From sequence record PQ805429.1: DNA of 64,000 nucleotides; one strand, given 5' to 3'. Of this stretch, positions 12,046-57,831 are shown piece after piece. Origin of the DNA: Escherichia phage EK5. The notes under the pieces were generated by a model. That model made no database searches, was not told where the DNA came from, and was given only the letters and a program-made list of their open reading frames with translations. The translations under genes were made by a program, and so were the position numbers. The stretch's first letter is position 1; the number at the start of each line of letters is the position of its first letter.

Positions 12046-12525
12046 AGAACCTGTAGTACATAAAGACTCTATCAGAGATCAATATAATGAGATGTTAAAG
12101 AAACAAGCTGATTCTAATCTTCGTTATCAGAGGATAGTAGAAAAATCTAACTTTAAAGGTTTACTTGAATGGTAACTTATATCCTTTACTTTTTAGCTTT
12201 CTTAGGAATAATCTTTTTATCTATTCTTATTGAATTCGGTTTAAGTAAGTTAGTTAATTATTTAGGTAATAAGTAATTAATATTCTTTTAAATAGAGAAT
12301 CAAAGTCCCTAGGAGTCCCTACAACCTAAATCAAGGATTCCTTAATTCTCTATTTTTATCTCGCAGGTGGCTCCTGCCCTTCGGTACTTGCAAGGGATTC
12401 TGTGAATTGCCCAATATACAAGCCTGCAATAACTTTATCAGCTATACAATATATATACATTACTAGTGTGTTATATCTACTACCAAAGATACTTATATTA
12501 TATAGTACTCTTATCGGTATAAGCG

Positions 12526-12534
12526 TAATGTATA
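12526..12534 (+). promoter_or_regulatory. TAATGTATA(CT) motif, candidate phage-sigma promoter element
   Basis: Exact TAATGTATACT 60 nt upstream of ATG 12594 in a 410-bp AT-rich intergenic region; inverted copy (minus sense) at 12454-12462. Confidence 0.5.
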
Positions 12535-12593
12535 CTATACATAACCGCTCAAAGAGAGCAACAATCTTTCAAATTAAATAAGGAAATTAAAAT

Positions 12594-13340
12594 ATGTCTA
12601 TGATTCCAACTATCGCAACTGCTTCCCGTAAATCCAACTACGATGTAATCCCTGATGGTGAGTACGAAGCACGTATCGTTCGTGTAGTAGGTTTAGGTGT
12701 TCACAATCGTGACCCTTGGATTGACCCGAAGACCAAAGCAGTAACTCCTAAGAATCCGGCTTTCCGTATGGATTTGGCTTTCGAGCTGATTGGTGTTGAT
12801 GCTACTGGTAAAGATTCCGATGGTAAGGCATTAGAACCACGTCCAGCTTGCCAGTTCAAGAGCTATGATGTAAACCCACGAGCTAAGAACTCTGGTATTC
12901 TTGATCTTTGCAAGATGATTGACCCAAGTATTCAAGCACTGAAAGGTGATCTATCTTGGTTCAAGGATGTTCTGTTAGGTCAGCCTGTTAACATTCTGGT
13001 TAACTCTTATACTAACAAAGCTGGTGAAGTTAAAAACTCCATCAAGACCATTTCTCCAATCCCAACCAAATATCGTGCAGCAGTTGGTGAAGCTCGTAGT
13101 CCTCTGGTATTCTTCGAACCATATGCTGAAACCGACGAGAACGTAGCATCCTACCAACTGATGTTCCCGTTCCAGCGCAACCTGCTTACTCAAGCTAATG
13201 ACGCTAAGAACATGCCTCTGGCTGGTCGTGAAATTACTCGTGCTTCTGAAACAGAGCAGAAAGAAGCTACTCCTTCAATCCCTACGATTGATAAAGAGCC
13301 TGCTTCTACTTACGAAGACGACAACGATAGCCCATTCTAA
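12594..13340 (+). CDS. putative ssDNA-binding protein (acidic C-terminal tail)
   Basis: 248 aa; C-terminus YEDDNDSPF resembles the SSB tail DDDIPF; strong RBS AAGGAA, high-expression codon usage, promoter motif upstream and terminator downstream. Confidence 0.45.
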   Translation: MSMIPTIATASRKSNYDVIPDGEYEARIVRVVGLGVHNRDPWIDPKTKAVTPKNPAFRMDLAFELIGVDATGKDSDGKALEPRPACQFKSYDVNPRAKNSGILDLCKMIDPSIQALKGDLSWFKDVLLGQPVNILVNSYTNKAGEVKNSIKTISPIPTKYRAAVGEARSPLVFFEPYAETDENVASYQLMFPFQRNLLTQANDAKNMPLAGREITRASETEQKEATPSIPTIDKEPASTYEDDNDSPF

Positions 13341-13361
13341 TAACTCTCCTTGTTATAGCTT

Positions 13362-13385
13362 AGCCACCTCCGGGTGGCTTTTTTC
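13362..13385 (+). terminator. rho-independent terminator
   Basis: AGCCACC-TCCG-GGTGGCT followed by TTTTTT. Confidence 0.75.
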
Positions 13386-13397
13386 GTTGGAGACAAC

Positions 13398-13748
13398 ATG
13401 CAAAACACATTAAGTGATAACTTAGGGTTTATCGTTTTCTCAGCTCTTGTATTCTTTGGTGGTATGAAGTTTAACGAATATCAAACAGACAGCAGTAATC
13501 TGGACAAAGAGAAGCACCAGCAAGAGTTAGAGATTGAAAGAAGTAGAGCAGCTGATGAAGTTGCTCAGAGAGTTCTTACCGGTTTATCTAACTGGAAGAA
13601 GAACACGGAAACCGTTTATAAAGAGATGCATTATGAGAAAACTAAACCAGTTTTTTATAATGTCTGCGCTAGTGATGAGTATGTCAGCTTGTTCAACGAG
13701 CGACAACAGCAGGCAATCAATGCCCTTACCAACAAACCTAAAAGCTGA
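13398..13748 (+). CDS. putative i-spanin (Rz-like)
   Basis: N-terminal TM helix LGFIVFSALVFFGG followed by charged coiled-coil region; contains overlapping lipoprotein gene in +1 frame. Confidence 0.5.
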   Translation: MQNTLSDNLGFIVFSALVFFGGMKFNEYQTDSSNLDKEKHQQELEIERSRAADEVAQRVLTGLSNWKKNTETVYKEMHYEKTKPVFYNVCASDEYVSLFNERQQQAINALTNKPKS

Positions 13749-13892
13749 ATGTAGGGTTGACCTACCTCTTTTAGAAAGTGCTCAAGGAAAAGCACTAGCC
13801 ACTACGTTGGAGTGGTATCAGGACCAGTATACAGAATGTGCTGCTAATCACAATGGATTGTTAGAAGCTCTGAAAGAGCGTGGAATAGAATA

Positions 13893-13893
<1 letters not shown>
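13633..13893 (+). CDS. putative o-spanin (Rz1-like lipoprotein)
   Basis: ATG 13633 inside the i-spanin gene; signal peptide MRKLNQFFIMSALVMSMSAC with lipobox-like MSAC; short mature protein. Confidence 0.5.
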
Positions 13894-15385
<1,492 letters not shown>

Positions 15386-15389
<4 letters not shown>

Positions 15390-16279
15390 ATGAAGAGGTA
15401 AAAGCTTTAAAGAAAGCTCTTGCAATTAAAATCAAACATTTAAATTTCGTCAGAGATGAGTTGGAGGAGCTATCCAACTTATCAGGATATGAGTTACAGA
15501 ATGAGCTTGTAGAGTTTCAAATCAATATTGATGGCGGTAAATACGTAGAAACAACTAGAGCGATTTTACCTAAAGTTACTGGTAACAAAACTTCTCCAAT
15601 AGACTACTCACATGACCACACGGAGCAATTAGAAATGGAATCTCAAGGCAATCCAGCACTGACCAATATGGTGGGAGATTCCCATTATAAGCCTTTAGTA
15701 GTAATTCTTAATGGGCCTCCGGGTTGTGGTAAAGATACGATAGCCAATGCTTGGGTTAATGCCCATTCATACCATCACAATTATTCAACCAAATCCTTCA
15801 AGGAGCCAATGTACAAGGTAGCTGCTGCTGCACTAGGCATACCTCTAGAAAACTTTCTAGCACGCTATGAAGACCGTGAATGGAAAGAAAAACCTAGACC
15901 AGAATGGGGAGGGAAGTCTGTAAGAGATTTGATGATTTCTACAAGTGAAGACTTCTTAAAACCTATGTTTGGCAACAATCATATGGGGGATCTTGCTGTA
16001 AAAAGCATCAAACAAGAAGGGCTAGGTCAGGATGATATTGTCGTGTTTACTGACGGAGGTTTTGATGCAGAGGTACGAGAACTAGAAAAGAATTTCCATG
16101 TCCAAGTTGTCCAAGTTCTTAGAGATGGTTGCTCTTTTGATGGAGACTCTCGCTCATATATTGAAGGCGAACAGAGAAAAACATATCTACTGTTTAATGA
16201 CTCAACTATTGAATCAGCAGTATCAGATCTAGATTGGATTATTGCACAAGCTCAGGATGATATTTATGGAAGAAGTTAA
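15386..16279 (+). CDS. P-loop nucleotide kinase, dNMP-kinase-like
   Basis: Walker A NGPPGCGKDTIANAW similar to T4 gp1 SGKDTTADF; N-terminal ~100 aa extra coiled-coil region; ATGA overlap with upstream gene. Confidence 0.5.
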
Positions 16280-26958: not shown

Positions 26959-27741
26959 TTACTTTACACCAATGCTAGCCAAACGTCTGAGCACTGCTTG
27001 TGTTTGTGGACTGTACTGAGAACCTGCTGCATGTGGTGCACTTGCCCTCTGAACTGTTTGAGAAGTCGGAGGTTTACCAGCAAGCATAGCAGCTACACCT
27101 AATACTGCATTACCAAAGTTCTGTTGAGGCTTCTGATCTTCCCCTTCTTGTACTTCATCAGAGTAAAACTCTACCGGATTACCACCTAAAGCACCTGTCT
27201 TAGAAGCAGCAATCTCTGCCTGAGTGGGAGCTTGTGCAGCCTTCTCTCTGTCTAACAAGTCAGGGTTAAACTGATTGACTGGTTGAACAGCTTGCAAAGC
27301 TCCAATTGGGTTAGCAATCTGAGAAGCTGCATCACCGTAAAAAGGAAGAAAGTGTTTGTTGTTCATTGAGTCTAGAGCCTGAGGGGTAAACCCTTTCTTA
27401 CCAGCAAACATCTGCCTAGCACCCCCTGTCCCTTCAGAGTAACCAACCATTGCTTTCTTAACATCGCCATTAAAAGCTTTTAAGTTATCTCTGATATAAC
27501 GAGCACCCATGTCAATATTCTTTGCTGGGTCCAGTCTATCTTCTAGTTTGTATCCATAGTCTTTAGCCAATCCTTTACTGATCTGCATTAAACCTACAGG
27601 ACCAGTTCCAGAGGCTACTTTAGGACGTCCACTAGACTCTCTTTGGATTACAGCATGAATCAAAGCAGCAGGAATCCCATACTTCTTTGAAGCTTGCTGT
27701 ACCATTGGGTCTAGTTCTTCGATACCCATTCTAATTGCCAT
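26959..27741 (-). CDS. SLT-domain lytic transglycosylase (virion-associated)
   Basis: IPAALIHAVIQRESSGRP...GLMQI matches the SLT catalytic E-S and GLMQ motifs. Confidence 0.75.
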   Translation of the reverse strand: MAIRMGIEELDPMVQQASKKYGIPAALIHAVIQRESSGRPKVASGTGPVGLMQISKGLAKDYGYKLEDRLDPAKNIDMGARYIRDNLKAFNGDVKKAMVGYSEGTGGARQMFAGKKGFTPQALDSMNNKHFLPFYGDAASQIANPIGALQAVQPVNQFNPDLLDREKAAQAPTQAEIAASKTGALGGNPVEFYSDEVQEGEDQKPQQNFGNAVLGVAAMLAGKPPTSQTVQRASAPHAAGSQYSPQTQAVLRRLASIGVK

Positions 27742-33641: not shown

Positions 33642-34133
33642 TTAATATTTACCTTCGGTGTAAAGATTAGCTTCTGCAACTCTTCTATTATGAAGACCCT
33701 GACTTCTCTGCTTCTCTCCCTTGACCGTTATTTTATCCCAACGAAGAAATTCGGAATAAACATCCCCCTTAACATCTCCATTGATTACCTTCCTTAACTT
33801 AGATGTGCTCAAAGCCCCACTGCCAACATTGAAGTTGAAAGAAGTGAGTGCATCAAACTCATGAACTAGTAAAGGAACCTTTATGTTCTTCTGAGTAGCA
33901 CGAACAGAGTCTTGTGTGTCTCTATCTAGCAGAGCTAGACAATCCTCTATAGAATACGTTAATCCTTGTCTAACCGGATAACCATTCATATCGCGCGTAG
34001 CCCCTACACATATAGTCCAGATACCTGCGGAATCTTTATAAGCCTTTGTTCTCATACCCTCATGCTTCATGATGAATTCCATTCCAGCTGGGCTTAAGTT
34101 TAGTTGTACAGGTGGCAATGCGACGTTATCCAT
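33642..34133 (-). CDS. GH24 phage lysozyme (muramidase)
   Basis: MEFIMKHEGMRTKAYKDSAGIWTICVGAT matches T4/lambda lysozyme E...D...T catalytic region. Confidence 0.75.
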   Translation of the reverse strand: MDNVALPPVQLNLSPAGMEFIMKHEGMRTKAYKDSAGIWTICVGATRDMNGYPVRQGLTYSIEDCLALLDRDTQDSVRATQKNIKVPLLVHEFDALTSFNFNVGSGALSTSKLRKVINGDVKGDVYSEFLRWDKITVKGEKQRSQGLHNRRVAEANLYTEGKY

Positions 34134-34162: not shown

Positions 34163-34381
34163 TTAAGGTAGTATCTTTCTCAGAGCGTTAGATTCAGCAT
34201 CAGGGCAAATAACAACTAAGTTATTTTGAATTGTTCTCTGCTTGCATTGAGAGCTAAGCTTCTCTACTGGAGCAGGGACAGTTACTAATGGATGAACTGC
34301 GCCTACAGGAACTGCGGTGGATACCACAACACCTGCGCCTAAACATATTAAACCATATGCAGCTTGTTTCATCATTTTCAT
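34163..34381 (-). CDS. small exported protein
   Basis: 72 aa; N-terminal signal-like MKMMKQAAYGLICLGAGVVVSTAV. Confidence 0.45.
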   Translation of the reverse strand: MKMMKQAAYGLICLGAGVVVSTAVPVGAVHPLVTVPAPVEKLSSQCKQRTIQNNLVVICPDAESNALRKILP

Positions 34382-34473: not shown

Positions 34474-36672
34474 TTACCTCTCTGCTAGTTTTGCTTCTAG
34501 AACTTCAATACGCTTCAGAAGGTCTTGAACAACCTGCATAGTATCAAGGAGCATAGGAGCTGAGTCTAGCTCTTTCTGTTCTTGCTCTACACCATCATTG
34601 TCGTGGAACCTACGAGTCTTAACATAAAGAGGTTCTACCTTTTCTGCTTGCTGTGCAATAACACCGCGACGAGTTCTTCCTTGTTCATCACTGTTGTACA
34701 CAAACGATTTGAAATCCAAACCTTTGATAGCCTTGATAGCTTTCTCAGGGGAAATATCTTGGATATTATGTTTTAACCTTTCATCTGACACAGGATTCAA
34801 GGCAAGGGTATATGTTCCAGTAGAGCTGGGTTGCCAAGTATAATAGAAAATCTCATTCCTGTTTGGTCGAAGGGTTAGGCGACAACCGTATTTGTTGTCT
34901 TCATCACCTGCAACGTGCCAGCAAGAATCGGCAAAAGTTCCGGCGTCATTGTGAATCATACCAACGTGAGTTGTAGTCTTGTACCCTCCATTGGATGCTT
35001 GTGATGCACTTAGTATAGAGTTGAATGAGTAGTTAGACCCTATCCCTTGGTTATCCATAGAGAATGTTCCTTTCCTAGCTCCTGTTTCACTCCAAGACAT
35101 CAAAGTGCCAAATCTAGAAACATACCTATCAGAATTCAGTGTACCAGAATCGTCGAAAGCTAACTGCTTGGTAACTCCTTTAGTTTTATTGTAGACGTCA
35201 ATGATTCCATAGTAAGCTCCGTTGATGTAGGCATCAGTTTTGAGAGTAGTAGAAGCTTCTACTTCTGAACCGATTTTATACTCAGAGACAACTGACCCAC
35301 TAGAAACTTTCGTTCCGTTGGAAGGTCGTGTGGTGTCACTATTAATAACAGACCAAGAAGTATTAGCAGCAACAAATCCACCGGTAGCACGAATAGTCCA
35401 CACACCAACAAAGTTTCTCGGTATAATGTTATCAGAGATACTATAACGACCATAAACTGGGTTGGACTGACTTGCGTCGAAGACTAGAGTATTATTACGT
35501 CCACCAACTGCACCGGACCCCGGAGGTATAGTGTCCCCCCCACCAGCCGGATACAAACTGTTGTCCGTATAGAATGAATCCTGCACAGACGTCCCGAATA
35601 TCCCTGCATAAGTCCCGGCTGATACACCAGCGACCTTACCCCTGATATTAGGTGCAGCAGAATCGTAGATAACACCATTGTTGGACGATATACCACCATC
35701 ACCGCGACCAAATAGCTCCTTAATAGAACCGACCTGAACCCCGTTGCGGTCTGGAACGCGGAAAGTAGTAGAACCGTCACCAGTAGAGTACTGTCCACGT
35801 TTTTGGGCATCACTAAGCCATTCAGAATCTGAGATAGGGGATAACAACTGTGCATAAGCCCAGAGATCTGGGTACTCTGAACGGTTAAGAAGCTGACCGT
35901 CTGATGTTACCTCAAAAGCTGGAATAAAAGCTCGACTATCACGTAAATGGAAATCACCAATACCGAAGTTAGAGATACCGCTCATCGTAGGACCACCAGA
36001 GCCACCACCACTGTTTCGAAGCTGTCTCAAAGTGACTGCATCATAATCACCAACTGCATCAGGAACAGTAACTGGTTGAGTGAAAGTTACCTTCTGGGTA
36101 AGTTGTTTGATATCAGAGTTAATCCCTGTACGAGTAACCCCAATAGTACGACCCTTGGAGTCTTTAACATAAGAACCAATTGCAGCAAAAGGCAAATCAT
36201 CAATCTCAGGACGGTAACGTTTAGAATAAACTGGATACTTAGTTTCTACCCCAGAGTCATTCTGGTCAACAACCTGAAGACGACCAGCAGAATGAATCTC
36301 TACACCTCGAACTGAAGAGGCATAACTACCAATCTTGATTGAGTTATCAGTAGTAACTTTCATCATATCAACTGATTCTACACCATTAGCTCCAGTAGAA
36401 CGGAATGGGGTATCATTAACAACCCAAGGGTCTTCTCGGAACAAAGCACCAGACATAATAGGTTGAATTGAATCCAGCACAAAATCTTTAGATGCACCTT
36501 CTACTTTAGTCTGGTATGTAGCAGCCGCATCGGTTTTCTGTAAATATTTTCCAGTAAGGTCAATAGCACCTGCTTGTCCATCTACAGTAGAAACGCCAAC
36601 AACAGCCGCATCTCTGGTTACAACTACATGAGGCATCATTATGCCAGATTTGGGCATTAATTCTCTAGACAT
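34474..36672 (-). CDS. tail fibre/tailspike with C-terminal intramolecular chaperone (Peptidase S74-like)
   Basis: 732 aa; C-terminal NPVSDERLKHNI resembles the S-D-x-R-x-K auto-cleavage site of endosialidase-type chaperone domains. Confidence 0.65.
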   Translation of the reverse strand: MSRELMPKSGIMMPHVVVTRDAAVVGVSTVDGQAGAIDLTGKYLQKTDAAATYQTKVEGASKDFVLDSIQPIMSGALFREDPWVVNDTPFRSTGANGVESVDMMKVTTDNSIKIGSYASSVRGVEIHSAGRLQVVDQNDSGVETKYPVYSKRYRPEIDDLPFAAIGSYVKDSKGRTIGVTRTGINSDIKQLTQKVTFTQPVTVPDAVGDYDAVTLRQLRNSGGGSGGPTMSGISNFGIGDFHLRDSRAFIPAFEVTSDGQLLNRSEYPDLWAYAQLLSPISDSEWLSDAQKRGQYSTGDGSTTFRVPDRNGVQVGSIKELFGRGDGGISSNNGVIYDSAAPNIRGKVAGVSAGTYAGIFGTSVQDSFYTDNSLYPAGGGDTIPPGSGAVGGRNNTLVFDASQSNPVYGRYSISDNIIPRNFVGVWTIRATGGFVAANTSWSVINSDTTRPSNGTKVSSGSVVSEYKIGSEVEASTTLKTDAYINGAYYGIIDVYNKTKGVTKQLAFDDSGTLNSDRYVSRFGTLMSWSETGARKGTFSMDNQGIGSNYSFNSILSASQASNGGYKTTTHVGMIHNDAGTFADSCWHVAGDEDNKYGCRLTLRPNRNEIFYYTWQPSSTGTYTLALNPVSDERLKHNIQDISPEKAIKAIKGLDFKSFVYNSDEQGRTRRGVIAQQAEKVEPLYVKTRRFHDNDGVEQEQKELDSAPMLLDTMQVVQDLLKRIEVLEAKLAER

Positions 36673-55198: not shown

Positions 55199-55267
55199 GT
55201 TATTTGTTCAAGCCTATCGCCTTGATGGGCTTGCCCGATATAACTTATCACTGAAAGGAATAAGATT

Positions 55268-55711
55268 GTGGCTAAATCTAAAATCAGCATGAAGGGCGGG
55301 CGTTGTTTTGCTATCTCTGAACTAGAGAAAGAGAAACCGAAGGCAACTAATCACGTTAGTAAGCGTAGTTTAAAACGTCGTGCTGCAAAGGCTGAGGCTG
55401 AATCCCATGTTCCTTCCAGTGTGGCAAAGCGTGTAGGCCATCGTGTCCATCGGGCTGATGCGTTGTTGTTGGCTGATCATAAACGTTCTTTGTTAAAGAG
55501 CGGGGGAGCTAAAACAGAAGAGGAGAAGAAGTTAGAAATCTTCTGTAATGGTCGCACCCGTGGTAAACAGAAGTTTAAAGGTAGCACGAAAGACCCGCAG
55601 GCTTTCCCTAAGACAAGCCAGTGTGCACCTGATGTTTTCTACGCAGATAGTAAACACAAGTGGGGCGTTGAAAAATACATTGACCCCATCAAAGAGGCAA
55701 GGGTTAAGTAG
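55268..55711 (+). CDS. basic hypothetical protein
   Basis: 147 aa, GTG start after AAGGAA. Confidence 0.4.
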   Translation: MAKSKISMKGGRCFAISELEKEKPKATNHVSKRSLKRRAAKAEAESHVPSSVAKRVGHRVHRADALLLADHKRSLLKSGGAKTEEEKKLEIFCNGRTRGKQKFKGSTKDPQAFPKTSQCAPDVFYADSKHKWGVEKYIDPIKEARVK

Positions 55712-55791
55712 TAGGAATATAGCCCCCTCTTTTAGTACTATGACGCTCTTTCTGTAGCGTCGTGCCCTCTCCCCATTTGAAGCTTCCGCAT

Positions 55792-55814
55792 AGCCGCCTT
55801 TGAGCGGCTTTTTG
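55792..55814 (+). terminator. rho-independent terminator (first of tandem pair)
   Basis: AGCCGC-CTTTGA-GCGGCT followed by TTTTTG. Confidence 0.55.
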
Positions 55815-55875
55815 CGTTGCTGTAAGTGCATTTGCGAGTGTATTTATAGCAACGGTCATGTGTTGCTTTCAGGTT

Positions 55876-55901
55876 TGCCCCGGCTACGGCTGGGGCTTTT
55901 T
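55876..55901 (+). terminator. rho-independent terminator (second of tandem pair)
   Basis: GCCCCGGC-TACG-GCTGGGGC followed by TTTTTT. Confidence 0.65.
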
Positions 55902-55928
55902 TATGTCTACTGTATAGGAATCTATGAA

Positions 55929-56609
55929 ATGAAAGCAATTGTATTATCCTCAATCCTAGCTCTGTCCATAATGGCATCGCCTGTTTTTGCTAAAAGTGGA
56001 AACAATGGCAATGGCAATGGAGGTTGTGGTGTAGGTCAATCTACCAATGGTTGCGGTATCGGAGATTGGTTTAAAGGTGAAAAAGGTGATCAGGGAGAGA
56101 AAGGCGACACTGGCGCTAATGGCATTGATGGTAAAGATGGCATTGATGGAGAACAAGGCGCTCAAGGTGAAAAAGGTGATTCTGGTGCAGATGGTAAGAA
56201 AGGCGAAACTGGCCTAACTGGTGCAGCAGGTTTGAATGGCGTTGACGGATTAAATGGCAAAAACGGTAAAGATGCAGATATGTCTGCCGTTAATGCTAAC
56301 GCCAAATCCATCAAAGCTCTGGAACAATCCACCAATAAACGTTTTGCTTCTTTGCAAAAACAAGTAGACCGTAACCGTGATCATGCCTCTGCTGGTATTT
56401 CTGGCGTGGCTGCAATGGCTAACATCCCGCAAGTAAGTCAAGGATCTGCTTTCTCTGTTGGTGCTGGGGTAGGTGCTTACGATGGTGAATCTGCTCTTGC
56501 TATTGGTGTTAGTGCTCGTTTCAATGAAAACTTAGTAACTAAAGCATCAGTGGCAATGACTTCAGAGAGTGACGCTGTTCTGGGCGCTGGTGTAAGTTAC
56601 GAGTGGTAA
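55929..56609 (+). CDS. collagen-repeat protein with YadA-type C-terminal anchor (trimeric autotransporter-like)
   Basis: Start moved to ATG 55929; signal peptide MKAIVLSSILALSIMASPVFA; ~22 uninterrupted G-X-Y triplets; coiled-coil neck; C-terminus ...ALAIGVSARFNENLVTKASVAMTSESDAVLGAGVSYEW matches the YadA anchor ending. Confidence 0.7.
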   Translation: MKAIVLSSILALSIMASPVFAKSGNNGNGNGGCGVGQSTNGCGIGDWFKGEKGDQGEKGDTGANGIDGKDGIDGEQGAQGEKGDSGADGKKGETGLTGAAGLNGVDGLNGKNGKDADMSAVNANAKSIKALEQSTNKRFASLQKQVDRNRDHASAGISGVAAMANIPQVSQGSAFSVGAGVGAYDGESALAIGVSARFNENLVTKASVAMTSESDAVLGAGVSYEW

Positions 56610-56616
56610 GATAGTG

Positions 56617-56645
56617 CCTCTCCCGAAAGGGAGGGGTGTTTCTAT
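56617..56645 (+). terminator. rho-independent terminator
   Basis: CCTCTCCC-GAAA-GGGAGGGG followed by TGTTTCT. Confidence 0.6.
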
Positions 56646-56719
56646 AAGCATCTTTTCGAGGGTGTTTATTGAAACAACAAAACAGGAGGTAGCAAGTTCT
56701 GATAACAACGGCACAGCTA

Positions 56720-57109
56720 ATGTTGACATTGACTATTTATTATGAGGCAGGGAATCAGCCAACCGCATGTAAGGCTTTAGTTGCGGATACCGTGATAAAT
56801 AGAATGGCCCAACGAAAACTGACCGCTGAACAGGTGATAAGACAGAAGAACCAGTTTGAGTGGATTCCGGTACTATTAAAACAGGAGAAACCTTATAAAC
56901 GTTATGTAAAGCTGATTCGTGATAAAAATCCGATGACTAAGCAAGCCATTGGAGAAAGCGAGCGACTTGCTAAACGTGCCCTTAAGAAGAATTATGTTCC
57001 GCTGTACAGTGGGACTTACTTTCAGAGTAAGAGCGAAGGGGTGCCAAAATGGTATGCCAATCCTATGTATTGTGGTGATTTAGTGTTCGATAATAGCTCT
57101 AGGGAATAA
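56720..57109 (+). CDS. cell-wall hydrolase, SleB/CwlJ-like (Hydrolase_2)
   Basis: IYYEAGNQPTACKALVADTVINRMAQ resembles the Hydrolase_2 N-terminal motif GEA..E...G..AVA.VI.NR. Confidence 0.55.
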   Translation: MLTLTIYYEAGNQPTACKALVADTVINRMAQRKLTAEQVIRQKNQFEWIPVLLKQEKPYKRYVKLIRDKNPMTKQAIGESERLAKRALKKNYVPLYSGTYFQSKSEGVPKWYANPMYCGDLVFDNSSRE

Positions 57110-57308
57110 TCACTAGTGCCAGATTTGACAAACTAAATTCCTTTATAAACCAACCACTTAGTAAATTTATCGAAAAAGATGGTAGTATTCTGGGACTATG
57201 GGTAATGCTCTGTATATAGACCCTTTGAAAATTTCTTAGAAAATAAGTTTACTAAATATAACTTACTTAAATAATATTACTTTTAATCTCTGATAAAGGG
57301 TAAATAAT

Positions 57309-57605
57309 ATGACTTTAGAAGTATATAAATTCCTTTTTGTAAGCTGTTTAACTATCAGCGTTCTAGGATTTATTGTTCTCAGAAACAAAGCAGCAAGCTG
57401 GGAAAGAATGTATAAATCCCTAGTTCGAGTGGATGAGATGTATAACGAGAAGGTTAAAGTAACACTCAACGATCTTATTATGCAAGTTGAAGACAGAAAC
57501 AAACGTCTTCAGAACCTCAATCATGAAGTGTTGCGACTTGCTCGTGCTAATGAAGACTTACGAGTGGCTATTGCTAAGCAGCAGGAGATTAACAGTGAAA
57601 GTTAA
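57309..57605 (+). CDS. membrane-anchored coiled-coil protein (possible holin or spanin-like lysis accessory)
   Basis: 98 aa; TM helix FLFVSCLTISVLGFIVL then charged helical region; next to hydrolase gene. Confidence 0.35.
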   Translation: MTLEVYKFLFVSCLTISVLGFIVLRNKAASWERMYKSLVRVDEMYNEKVKVTLNDLIMQVEDRNKRLQNLNHEVLRLARANEDLRVAIAKQQEINSES

Positions 57606-57831
57606 TATTAAATCTGATTATACAATGCTTCGATTAAATAACATGAAGCCGGGCGTTCTGTTTGAGCGTAAAGAATCCCTTTACATTAGAACCGACACAT
57701 TGTACGCAGACAATTATGTCAACTGTGTTGATGTGGTAACTGGAAAGCTCATGCCTTTTAAACGGGATGAAGTCTGCCAAGTACGTAGTGATCTCCACAT
57801 AACTAACATAGGGGCTAAGGATGAAGATTAA
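57595..57831 (+). CDS. small protein, paralog family member
   Basis: GTG start after AGGAG; shares family pattern with 57821, 58079, 60721, 62146, 62394, 62642. Confidence 0.4.
   Translation: MKVNIKSDYTMLRLNNMKPGVLFERKESLYIRTDTLYADNYVNCVDVVTGKLMPFKRDEVCQVRSDLHITNIGAKDED

Follow-up and report, generated by a model that had tools for sequence, protein, structure and literature searches.

The window, by which we mean the whole stretch of 64 kb that was analysed, belongs to a phiEco32-like coliphage (Kuravirus) and is 97–99.5% identical to phiEco32, TH06 and YW01. On its plus strand, inside the middle-gene (replication) block, there are two genes which overlap in different frames: the first codes for a membrane protein and the second for a putative lipoprotein. 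A megablast search with positions 12500–15500 matched 98 phage records, nearly all of them phiEco32-like podophages (Gordonclarkvirinae) of E. coli and Shigella; TH06 and YW01 are the top matches (99.5%), while phiEco32 has an identity of 97.2% in this region. The plus strand of the window corresponds to the phiEco32 record in reverse complement, so that the two genes are the homologues of phiEco32 genes 39 and 38. We will call them the i-spanin gene and the o-spanin gene. They are neighboured by a homologue of gene 40, by a macro-domain gene and by the gene of the phage sigma factor. Their place between gene 40 and the sigma gene is fixed in all the relatives examined. The initial annotation had remarked that there is no holin or endolysin beside the pair, as it is indeed apparent from these neighbours. 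The features which we will discuss are collected in Table 1.

Table 1. Position and main characteristics of the spanin genes, their putative control elements and the other lysis-related genes found in the window
Feature	Position	Strand	Characteristics
P40 promoter element, gp36-sigma-dependent	12526–12534	+	TAATGTATA, exact match, upstream of the gene-40 homologue
Intrinsic-terminator-like hairpin	13362–13385	+	AGCCACC-TCCG-GGTGGCT and then T6; in the spacer that separates gene 40 from the i-spanin gene
i-spanin gene (phiEco32 gene 39 homologue)	13398–13748	+	ATG start, 116 aa; phrog_1152, N-terminal transmembrane helix
Region read in two frames	13633–13748	+	116 nt; last 39 i-spanin codons, o-spanin signal peptide and first mature residues
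o-spanin gene (phiEco32 gene 38 homologue, correctly started)	13633–13893	+	ATG start, 86 aa; PS51257 lipobox, phrog_2425
SLT protein	26959–27741	-	PF01464, E=1.7e-24
Endolysin, GH24 muramidase	33642–34133	-	163 aa; PF00959 Phage_lysozyme, E=3.7e-32; phrog_7 endolysin, E=4e-46
Holin candidate	34163–34381	-	72 aa, single transmembrane segment; phrog_11161 holin, E=2.8e-50
SleB-like Hydrolase_2 protein	56720–57109	+	PF07486, E=1.7e-7

The i-spanin matches phrog_1152, described as Rz-like spanin, over residues 3–116 (E=2.7e-37). It has a sole hydrophobic segment, LGFIVFSALVFFGGMKF, which is N-terminal and corresponds approximately to residues 9–25 (mean Kyte-Doolittle value 1.9 over 17 residues). 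A single-sequence AlphaFold2 model has helices in residues 3–25, 36–76, 79–91 and 93–111; we use it as weak support for helicity, since its confidence is low (pLDDT 56). The phiEco32 orthologue has 61% of predicted helix by Jpred, and Pepcoil gives no coiled coil for it; in the NJ01 orthologue a coiled coil is found in residues 24–51 only (PMC6139136, Tables S2 and S3). The protein had been described as a transmembrane segment plus a coiled coil. The single transmembrane segment and the helical character stand, while the coiled coil is weakly supported: the Pepcoil result on the orthologues is borderline and the confidence of the structural model is low. The stretch ahead of the transmembrane helix, MQNTLSDN, has a net charge of -1 and contains no positive charge, so that the positive-inside rule by itself fails to predict a topology with the N-terminus inside and the C-terminus outside; the same remark on the N-terminal charge was made for the NJ01 i-spanin by Kongari et al. 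2018 (PMC6139136). By analogy with other i-spanins the N-in/C-out topology would nevertheless be expected.

The o-spanin gene starts at nucleotide 236 of the i-spanin gene, in its +1 frame: the difference between the two starts (13633-13398) leaves 1 when divided by 3. Its precursor begins with MRKLNQFFIMSALVMSMSA|CSTS, where MRKLNQFFIMSALVMSMSA is the signal peptide and the cysteine that follows, Cys20, is predicted to be lipidated. The segment MSALVMSMSAC, in which the lipobox is MSAC, fits the PROSITE pattern PS51257, with R2 and K3 in the n-region and Ser in position +2 after Cys20. Among the 540 Met-initiated reading frames of at least 50 aa in the six frames of the window it is the only match to this pattern, which argues that the lipobox is no chance feature. 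A lipoprotein gene in the +1 frame with a lipobox-like signal peptide had been proposed from the beginning, and it is confirmed here. A lipoprotein signal prediction had been suggested as a check: for the identical o-spanin of phage Paul the annotation gives a LipoP SpII cleavage between residues 19 and 20 (score 18.0). According to the +2 rule of E. coli a serine in this position directs the lipoprotein to the outer membrane. Sorting of the o-spanin to the outer membrane is therefore expected, as the +2 residue is Ser and not Asp. The predicted mature protein has 67 aa counted from Cys20; it contains Cys40, Cys69 and a conserved C-terminal motif. In residues 6–84 the protein matches phrog_2425 (E=3.5e-27), a group without an assigned function in PHROGs; there is also a weak match to phrog_456, Rz-like spanin (E=1.3e-3). 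The start codon at 13633 and the Shine-Dalgarno sequence AAAGAG which precedes it are invariant in the aligned phages. A longer version of the gene, starting at a TTG in position 13534 of the window, was considered and rejected, because in the diverged phages stop codons interrupt it.

The two genes have 116 nt in common, and the o-spanin gene extends 145 nt beyond the i-spanin gene's stop codon. The arrangement of i-spanin and o-spanin which had been proposed is thus borne out, and it is of the overlapped type, not of the embedded one. We have studied selection in an alignment of 11 Gordonclarkvirinae phages from the genera Kuravirus, Nieuwekanaalvirus and Suseptimavirus, with a nucleotide identity of about 80% at its lowest. 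Both frames are open in all 11 phages; Cys20, Cys40 and Cys69 of the o-spanin and Cys90 of the i-spanin are unchanged in all of them. In the 142 nt which belong only to the o-spanin gene, the variable sites in its own frame are 18, 5 and 38 at codon positions 1, 2 and 3. There dN/dS is 0.06–0.12 for the three most diverged computable pairs; in the other two frames it is either about 0.7–1 or far above 1. For the part which belongs only to the i-spanin gene dN/dS is 0.03–0.28 (11 phages). The overlap has 25 variable sites out of 114, the region upstream 86 out of 234 and the region downstream 61 out of 142. The changes in the overlap are found at third positions of the i-spanin frame, which are second positions of the o-spanin frame. 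This distribution indicates that the C-terminus of the i-spanin is the more constrained of the two sequences, while the signal peptide of the o-spanin absorbs the changes. Both frames are under purifying selection and the o-spanin frame is a real gene.

Homologues were searched with tblastn in 50,697 phage records; the o-spanin was found in 253 of them and the i-spanin in 434. Outside the phiEco32 group, with identities of 26–43%, there are homologues in Felix O1-like myophages, Erwinia phages, Sashavirus and other siphophages, small Peduoviridae and Proteus phages. Many of these records are already annotated as i-spanin or o-spanin. Both partners are found side by side in the Felix O1-like, Sashavirus, Peduoviridae and Proteus phages, and they keep the lipobox cysteine and the C-terminal motifs. 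In several cases they belong to a lysis cassette. Salmonella phage Sergei has the order holin/antiholin, endolysin, holin, i-spanin, o-spanin; Yersinia phage YenM_324 has holin, peptidase, i-spanin, o-spanin; and Proteus phage ZX7 has holin, endolysin, i-spanin, o-spanin, the last one unannotated. The Felix O1-like phage Mordin has the pair directly after a terminator, among non-late (early/middle) genes, with a macro-domain gene 1.5 kb downstream. Phages of the Bas87 type show a different change: an HNH gene splits the overlap, and a new signal peptide bearing a lipobox is found ahead of an unchanged mature o-spanin.

The residues G22, N88, C90, Y95, N100, E101 and L110 are invariant in the aligned i-spanin homologues, down to 26% identity; Cys90 lies in the invariant motif N-x-C-x-x-x-x-Y-x-x-x-x-N-E. 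In the same way C20, G52, Y66, C69, N74 and L76 are invariant in eight aligned o-spanins, down to 30% identity. One cysteine of each protein, C90 of the i-spanin and C69 of the o-spanin, is thus found in all the aligned distant homologues. That each partner keeps a C-terminal motif with a cysteine is what would be expected of periplasmic domains in contact within disulfide-linked oligomers, if the lambda model applies.

The pair belongs to PHROG 1152 and PHROG 2425, and also to the i-spanin family JH2 and the NJ01 o-spanin group of Kongari et al. 2018; KBNP1711, a member of these groups, has identities of 94% (i-spanin) and 84% (o-spanin) with the proteins of the window. We rejected a membership in the sequence families of lambda Rz and Rz1: neither protein matches PF03245, Rz1 or any other spanin family in a Pfam scan, and an NCBIfam scan gave no match for either of them. 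The only Pfam matches of the i-spanin are DUF3290 and DUF7333, far below threshold (E up to 0.1), and a profile built from the i-spanin alignment found nothing among the PDB sequences at E up to 1. The two proteins would work like Rz and Rz1 while standing outside those families. The literature searched reports no genetic or biochemical experiments on members of this spanin family.

The holin and endolysin genes are found about 20 kb away from the spanin pair, on the opposite strand. The holin candidate is annotated as holin class III in phage Paul, and its gene is directly upstream of the GH24 gene; both are flanked by tail-fibre genes and baseplate genes and belong to the late structural block. 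The GH24 protein contains the triad E25-x8-D34-x5-T40 and its maximum hydrophobicity (KD17) is 0.71; in phage Paul it is annotated as endolysin glycosidase. Its sequence identifies it as a soluble endolysin. Two GenBank records label it as a SAR endolysin, a label which we reject since there is no hydrophobic N-terminal segment. The other two hydrolases are found elsewhere. The SLT gene adjoins the DNA-ejection genes, and the Paul record annotates its product as an internal virion protein resembling T7 internal virion protein D; most likely it serves entry and not exit. The SleB-like gene is found in the early region, beside a gene with a YadA anchor and collagen repeats. At the domain level the three peptidoglycan hydrolases listed in the initial annotation are all present where it placed them, while their roles are different. 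Its conclusion that the lysis functions are dispersed holds for the spanin pair, which does lie apart. It is overstated for the rest, since the holin gene adjoins the GH24 gene in a normal holin-endolysin pair and the SLT protein is a virion protein. Only the spanins are detached from the holin-endolysin pair; the SleB-like hydrolase is also located elsewhere.

We have also analysed how the spanin genes may be expressed. The replication cluster belongs to the middle temporal class (PMC8948821, PMC9965538); the class which we give to genes 38 and 39 comes from the statements of these two papers on the whole cluster. A P40 promoter with the sequence found in the window is listed for phiEco32 and five relatives among the predicted middle/late promoters (PMC8948821, supplement). 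The spacer between the gene-40 homologue and the start of the i-spanin gene has 57 nt and contains the hairpin given in Table 1, which occupies 13362–13379 and is followed by the T run. The hairpin folds at -19.3 kcal/mol (z=-3.7), and the spacer is nearly invariant in the 11 phages, though the coding flanks diverge to about 80% identity. The Paul record labels the hairpin as a terminator, and it probably acts as such. Conservation and folding energy are the evidence for its structure; no covariation was detected in the terminator or anti-Shine-Dalgarno helices of the 11 phages, because the stems are invariant. A predicted outer pairing CUCUCC/GGAGA (13344–13349 with 13389–13393) would cover the Shine-Dalgarno sequence of the i-spanin gene.

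A promoter past the terminator, ahead of the i-spanin start, was considered and rejected: the interval has only 18 nt, Shine-Dalgarno sequence included. A sigma70-like match at 13633–13661 was also discarded: it falls within the genes, and such sites do not exceed chance, with 5 found versus 7.8 expected. As there is no room for a promoter past the hairpin, read-through transcripts of the middle phase most likely supply the spanins, ahead of the late holin and endolysin; P40 is the likely source of these transcripts. According to the established view spanin complexes stay inert as long as the peptidoglycan is in place, and an early accumulation of the spanins fits this view.

A further idea may be considered, which we regard as doubtful: the spanins might be deliberately kept as middle-phase proteins at a low level. 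Transcription from P40 would be attenuated by the nearly invariant terminator, the ribosome-binding site of the i-spanin would be masked by the conserved CUCUCC/GGAGA helix, and translation would depend on ribosomes which terminate at gene 40. If this is true, it would be a device to control the dosage and timing of a lysis protein encoded apart from the late regulon. The Felix O1-like phages, which also have a terminator before the pair, may be the source from which such a device was inherited along with the spanin cassette.

Taken as a whole, the match to phrog_1152, the lipobox, the purifying selection on both frames, the invariant cysteines and the homologues found in holin-endolysin-spanin cassettes support the reading as overlapped i-spanin and o-spanin genes. 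We consider it very probable that the pair is the two-component spanin of this phiEco32-like podophage, and most likely the phage uses it to break the outer membrane at lysis. The sequence features used by Summer et al. 2007 and Kongari et al. 2018 to define this class are found in the window: the i-spanin has a single N-terminal transmembrane domain and a largely alpha-helical remainder, the o-spanin combines a lipobox cysteine, within a signal for signal peptidase II, with a +2 residue different from Asp, the two genes are adjacent through their overlap, and there are cysteines for predicted disulfides in the periplasmic parts (Cys90 in the i-spanin, Cys40 and Cys69 in the mature o-spanin). 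We have found no other lipoprotein candidate, nor a unimolecular spanin candidate, in the 64 kb of the window.

The lambda Rz/Rz1 model, established by the Young laboratory, can be applied to the gene structure, targeting signals, double selection, family membership and cassette context described above; the topology, complex formation and membrane fusion which follow, as well as the transcription route, are modelled on it. The first gene would give a type II inner-membrane protein with an N-terminal anchor and a helical periplasmic domain. The second one, starting 235 nt into the first in the +1 frame, would give a prolipoprotein cut by signal peptidase II before Cys20. Once lipidated, it would be carried by the Lol system to the inner leaflet of the outer membrane, in agreement with Ser instead of Asp at +2. 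With their conserved C-terminal motifs the periplasmic domains may then bind each other, giving disulfide-linked complexes which thread the peptidoglycan and are harmless while the wall is intact. Transcription would probably start at the gp36-dependent P40 and read through the terminator, so that the spanins would accumulate well before the late holin and endolysin. When the holin releases the GH24 endolysin and the wall is degraded, the freed complexes would cluster and fuse the inner and outer membranes, as the last step of lysis.

The position of the pair suggests a different interpretation: the two proteins might serve superinfection exclusion or receptor masking, like the Llp lipoprotein of T5 or Imm and Sp of T4, and have no role in lysis. 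The genes are placed in the middle replication block, beside those for the macro domain and the sigma factor, at a distance of about 20 kb from holin and endolysin; their likely driver is a middle promoter, P40; the homologues in Mordin are also found among early/middle genes; and the literature searched contains no experimental lysis phenotype for this family. We think that this interpretation is unlikely. In three unrelated phage groups homologues of both partners directly follow the holin and endolysin genes, and the combination of an inner-membrane anchor with an overlapped outer-membrane lipoprotein, both with periplasmic cysteines, is kept at identities of 26–43%. The T4 spanins pseT.3 and pseT.2 are also far from the holin t and the endolysin e (PMC6139136), so that a remote position is no argument against a spanin function. 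Furthermore, the window offers no other spanin candidate.

The pair could also be a decaying or redundant remnant of a spanin, while another factor located elsewhere in the genome disrupts the outer membrane. It is unlinked from the holin-endolysin pair and stands behind a terminator, about 13.5 kb of the genome of roughly 77.5 kb are outside the window, and phages without spanins do exist (PMC6139136). Such a remnant is very improbable in view of the strong purifying selection, the complete conservation over three genera, the location, unchanged in all relatives examined, between gene 40 and the sigma gene and the repair of the o-spanin signal peptide after the HNH insertion. It is even harder to believe that the o-spanin frame is a chance overlapping frame and only the i-spanin gene is real, as a membrane protein of unrelated function: the full frame is indeed uncalled in most GenBank and RefSeq records (there are fragments of 57 aa in phi32_38 of phiEco32 and in Bas90_0031 and of 41 aa in KBNP1711 and EP335, and none in HC-25922) and its PHROG lacks a function, but this idea is contradicted by the substitution pattern (18/5/38, dN/dS 0.06–0.12), by the invariant start codon, Shine-Dalgarno sequence and three cysteines, by a lipobox signal found in one of 540 frames and retained in homologues with 30–43% identity, and by the gain of a new signal peptide after the HNH insertion.

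A spanin pair in phages of this group had been described before. In the i-spanin family JH2 of Kongari et al. 2018, PhiEco32, NJ01, ECBP2 and KBNP1711 stand alongside Felix O1-like phages; the same four phages form a single o-spanin group (PMC6139136). For Phieco32 they give an overlapped architecture ('ovl') with the i-spanin in 35417–35768, the o-spanin in 35272–35533 and 116 nt of overlap (PMC6139136, Table S4); the o-spanin starts of ECBP2 and KBNP1711 were moved upstream to recover the lipoprotein signal (PMC6139136, Table S1). The pair is annotated in at least three GenBank records: Paul, ShigP1 and SU7. In phage Paul (MN045231) CPT_Paul_036 and CPT_Paul_035 are annotated as i-spanin and o-spanin and their proteins are identical to those of the window. 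There is no discussion of lysis genes in the genome announcement of Paul or in the SU7 paper, and a 2023 review of Kuravirus genomics (PMC9965538) does not mention spanins. In the related Proteus phage Privateer the spanins are also away from holin and endolysin (PMC7881722). The pair had been catalogued previously, together with its overlapped architecture and with its separation from holin and endolysin; the 2018 census and the Paul annotation of the same pair make our finding a correct rediscovery. It has little value as a discovery, and its practical value lies in annotation. Most phiEco32-like records, including the RefSeq reference, have an o-spanin gene which is truncated and lacks the signal peptide, or have none. 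Those who engineer these phages, which are therapeutic candidates, or insert payloads in the 'replication block' should be aware that a lysis function sits there.

The closest systems are those of phiEco32 and Paul. The proteins of phiEco32, gp39 and gp38, differ from those of the window by one residue each, and those of Paul are 100% identical. Both phages have the same overlap of 116 nt, an o-spanin of 86 aa cleaved between residues 19 and 20, an i-spanin of 116 aa and the same position among gene 40, the macro-domain gene and the sigma gene. The RefSeq and GenBank records of phiEco32 differ from the window by a truncated gene 38, with 57 aa and no signal peptide. In the Felix O1-like phages (Ounavirinae) the pair Mordin_134/133 has an i-spanin of the same family and a related o-spanin, with 26–34% identity. 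It is also overlapped, has a terminator ahead, lies among non-late genes and has a macro-domain gene nearby; it differs in that Mordin is a myophage and that Cys40 of the o-spanin is not conserved.

With lambda Rz/Rz1 the pair shares the predicted topology of both partners, the periplasmic cysteines and a helical periplasmic domain in the i-spanin. In lambda, Rz1 is fully embedded in Rz, whereas the genes of the window only overlap; the pair has no match to PF03245 and is not adjacent to the equivalents of S and R. Lambda Rz1 has 40 aa and is proline-rich and unstructured. In contrast, the mature o-spanin of the window has 67 aa with only 3 prolines and about 46% of predicted helix (PMC6139136).

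The prototype of the overlapped architecture is LysB/LysC of P2 (PMC6139136). In both cases the o-spanin gene starts within the i-spanin gene, in another frame, and continues past its stop codon, and an inner-membrane anchor is combined with an outer-membrane lipoprotein. We have found no detectable sequence relationship between the two pairs, and that of P2 is placed in the lysis cassette, while here the distance to holin and endolysin is about 20 kb. In this last respect the window is closer to T4, where PseT.3 and PseT.2 are encoded far from t and e. Their sizes, 117 and 83 aa, are similar to those found here, and a C-terminal helix is predicted for the o-spanin (PMC6139136, Fig. 8). In T4, however, the two genes do not overlap but are separated, and their sequence family is another one.

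In Escherichia phage AnnaHegner_Bas87 the overlap of the i-spanin gene with the o-spanin gene is interrupted by an HNH homing-endonuclease gene, and the same is found in Bas86, SU7, PAS59, EK010 and E20-1. The insertion has about 516 nt. The i-spanin ends prematurely with a novel tail (…QQQAAEALKLKN*). Reading from the original o-spanin start now meets a stop codon 17 codons on, so this start is dead. The unchanged mature o-spanin is preceded instead by a new signal peptide, MLTKKKQKSCLVILLASSLMAC, which has a lipobox and whose coding sequence overlaps the HNH gene at the 3' end of the latter. Downstream of the HNH stop there is a 29-nt copy of the i-spanin 3' end. The event converts an overlapped spanin pair into a separated one. 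In the Bas87 record the i-spanin is entered as a join of two pieces; its sequence does not obviously require this.

A further HNH homing-endonuclease gene, of about 420–540 nt, is carried by SU10, KM01, FH3, 1-6af and CHD5UKE1, close relatives of the window at 12500–15500. It lies inside this 3-kb stretch, annotated beside the macro-domain (Appr-1-p) and sigma-factor genes; the window is without it at 12500–15500.

Coordinates of the features discussed
Feature	Sequence	Position	Remarks
Gene-40 homologue, conserved, directly upstream of the spanins	window	12594–13340	phrog_6599, function not given
57-nt spacer, gene-40 homologue to i-spanin gene	window	13341–13397	
Predicted outer helix in spacer	window	13344–13349 with 13389–13393	CUCUCC with GGAGA
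Terminator hairpin in spacer	window	13362–13379	plus T6
Collagen triple-helix repeats and YadA-like outer-membrane anchor	window	55800–56609	PF03895, E=2.9e-19
Small SleB-like cell-wall hydrolase, after the collagen/YadA-anchor gene	window	56720–57109	PF07486
Region with the HNH homing-endonuclease gene in the i-/o-spanin overlap	L009 (AnnaHegner_Bas87)	688–1725	

Most public records mis-annotate the o-spanin gene (window 13633–13893, considered together with L002, L003, L007, L008 and L011–L015, stretches from related phage records). It is called as a "hypothetical protein" of 57 or 41 aa without signal peptide; shortened versions are phi32_38 of phiEco32, Bas90_0031, ECBP3_0034 of KBNP1711 and ORF34 of EP335, among others, and in the HC-25922 record the gene is not called. 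Its family, phrog_2425, has no function assigned in PHROGs v4.

The spacer upstream of the i-spanin gene is nearly invariant across 11 phages, with coding flanks about 80% identical. Its predicted outer helix would mask the i-spanin Shine-Dalgarno sequence; comparison of the 11 phages gave no covariation to support pairing in the spacer helices. The gene-40 homologue weakly resembles the phage replication initiation proteins of family NGO0469 (NF046043), with E=2e-5 and 24 bits, under the cutoff of 75 bits.

As for the hydrolases, the GH24 protein (window 33642–34133, minus strand) is labelled "SAR-endolysin" in GenBank records MN03 and MN05. We reject this label: the protein has no hydrophobic N-terminal segment, its maximum 17-residue Kyte-Doolittle mean being 0.71. 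Judged by its sequence, it looks like a soluble endolysin with an E25/D34/T40 triad. The collagen/YadA-anchor gene has a start resembling a signal peptide at an internal Met (MKAIVLSSILALSIMASPVFA). This early-region block is variable in part: among 99 related records, coverage of window 55200–57700 reaches 80% or more in only 8.

The spanin family of the window is also found in Citrobacter phage Mordin, a Felix O1-like myophage (L005 2220–5028). There a terminator is annotated directly upstream of the spanins and a macro-domain gene lies about 1.5 kb downstream of them, which echoes the terminator-spanin-macro order of the window. This shared order may correspond to a module exchanged between Felix O1-like and phiEco32-like phages. 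The HNH event in Bas87-type phages is of the same kind as the GIY-YIG gene event described by Kongari et al. (PMC6139136) in the spanins of the T5-like phages Shivani and phiR201.
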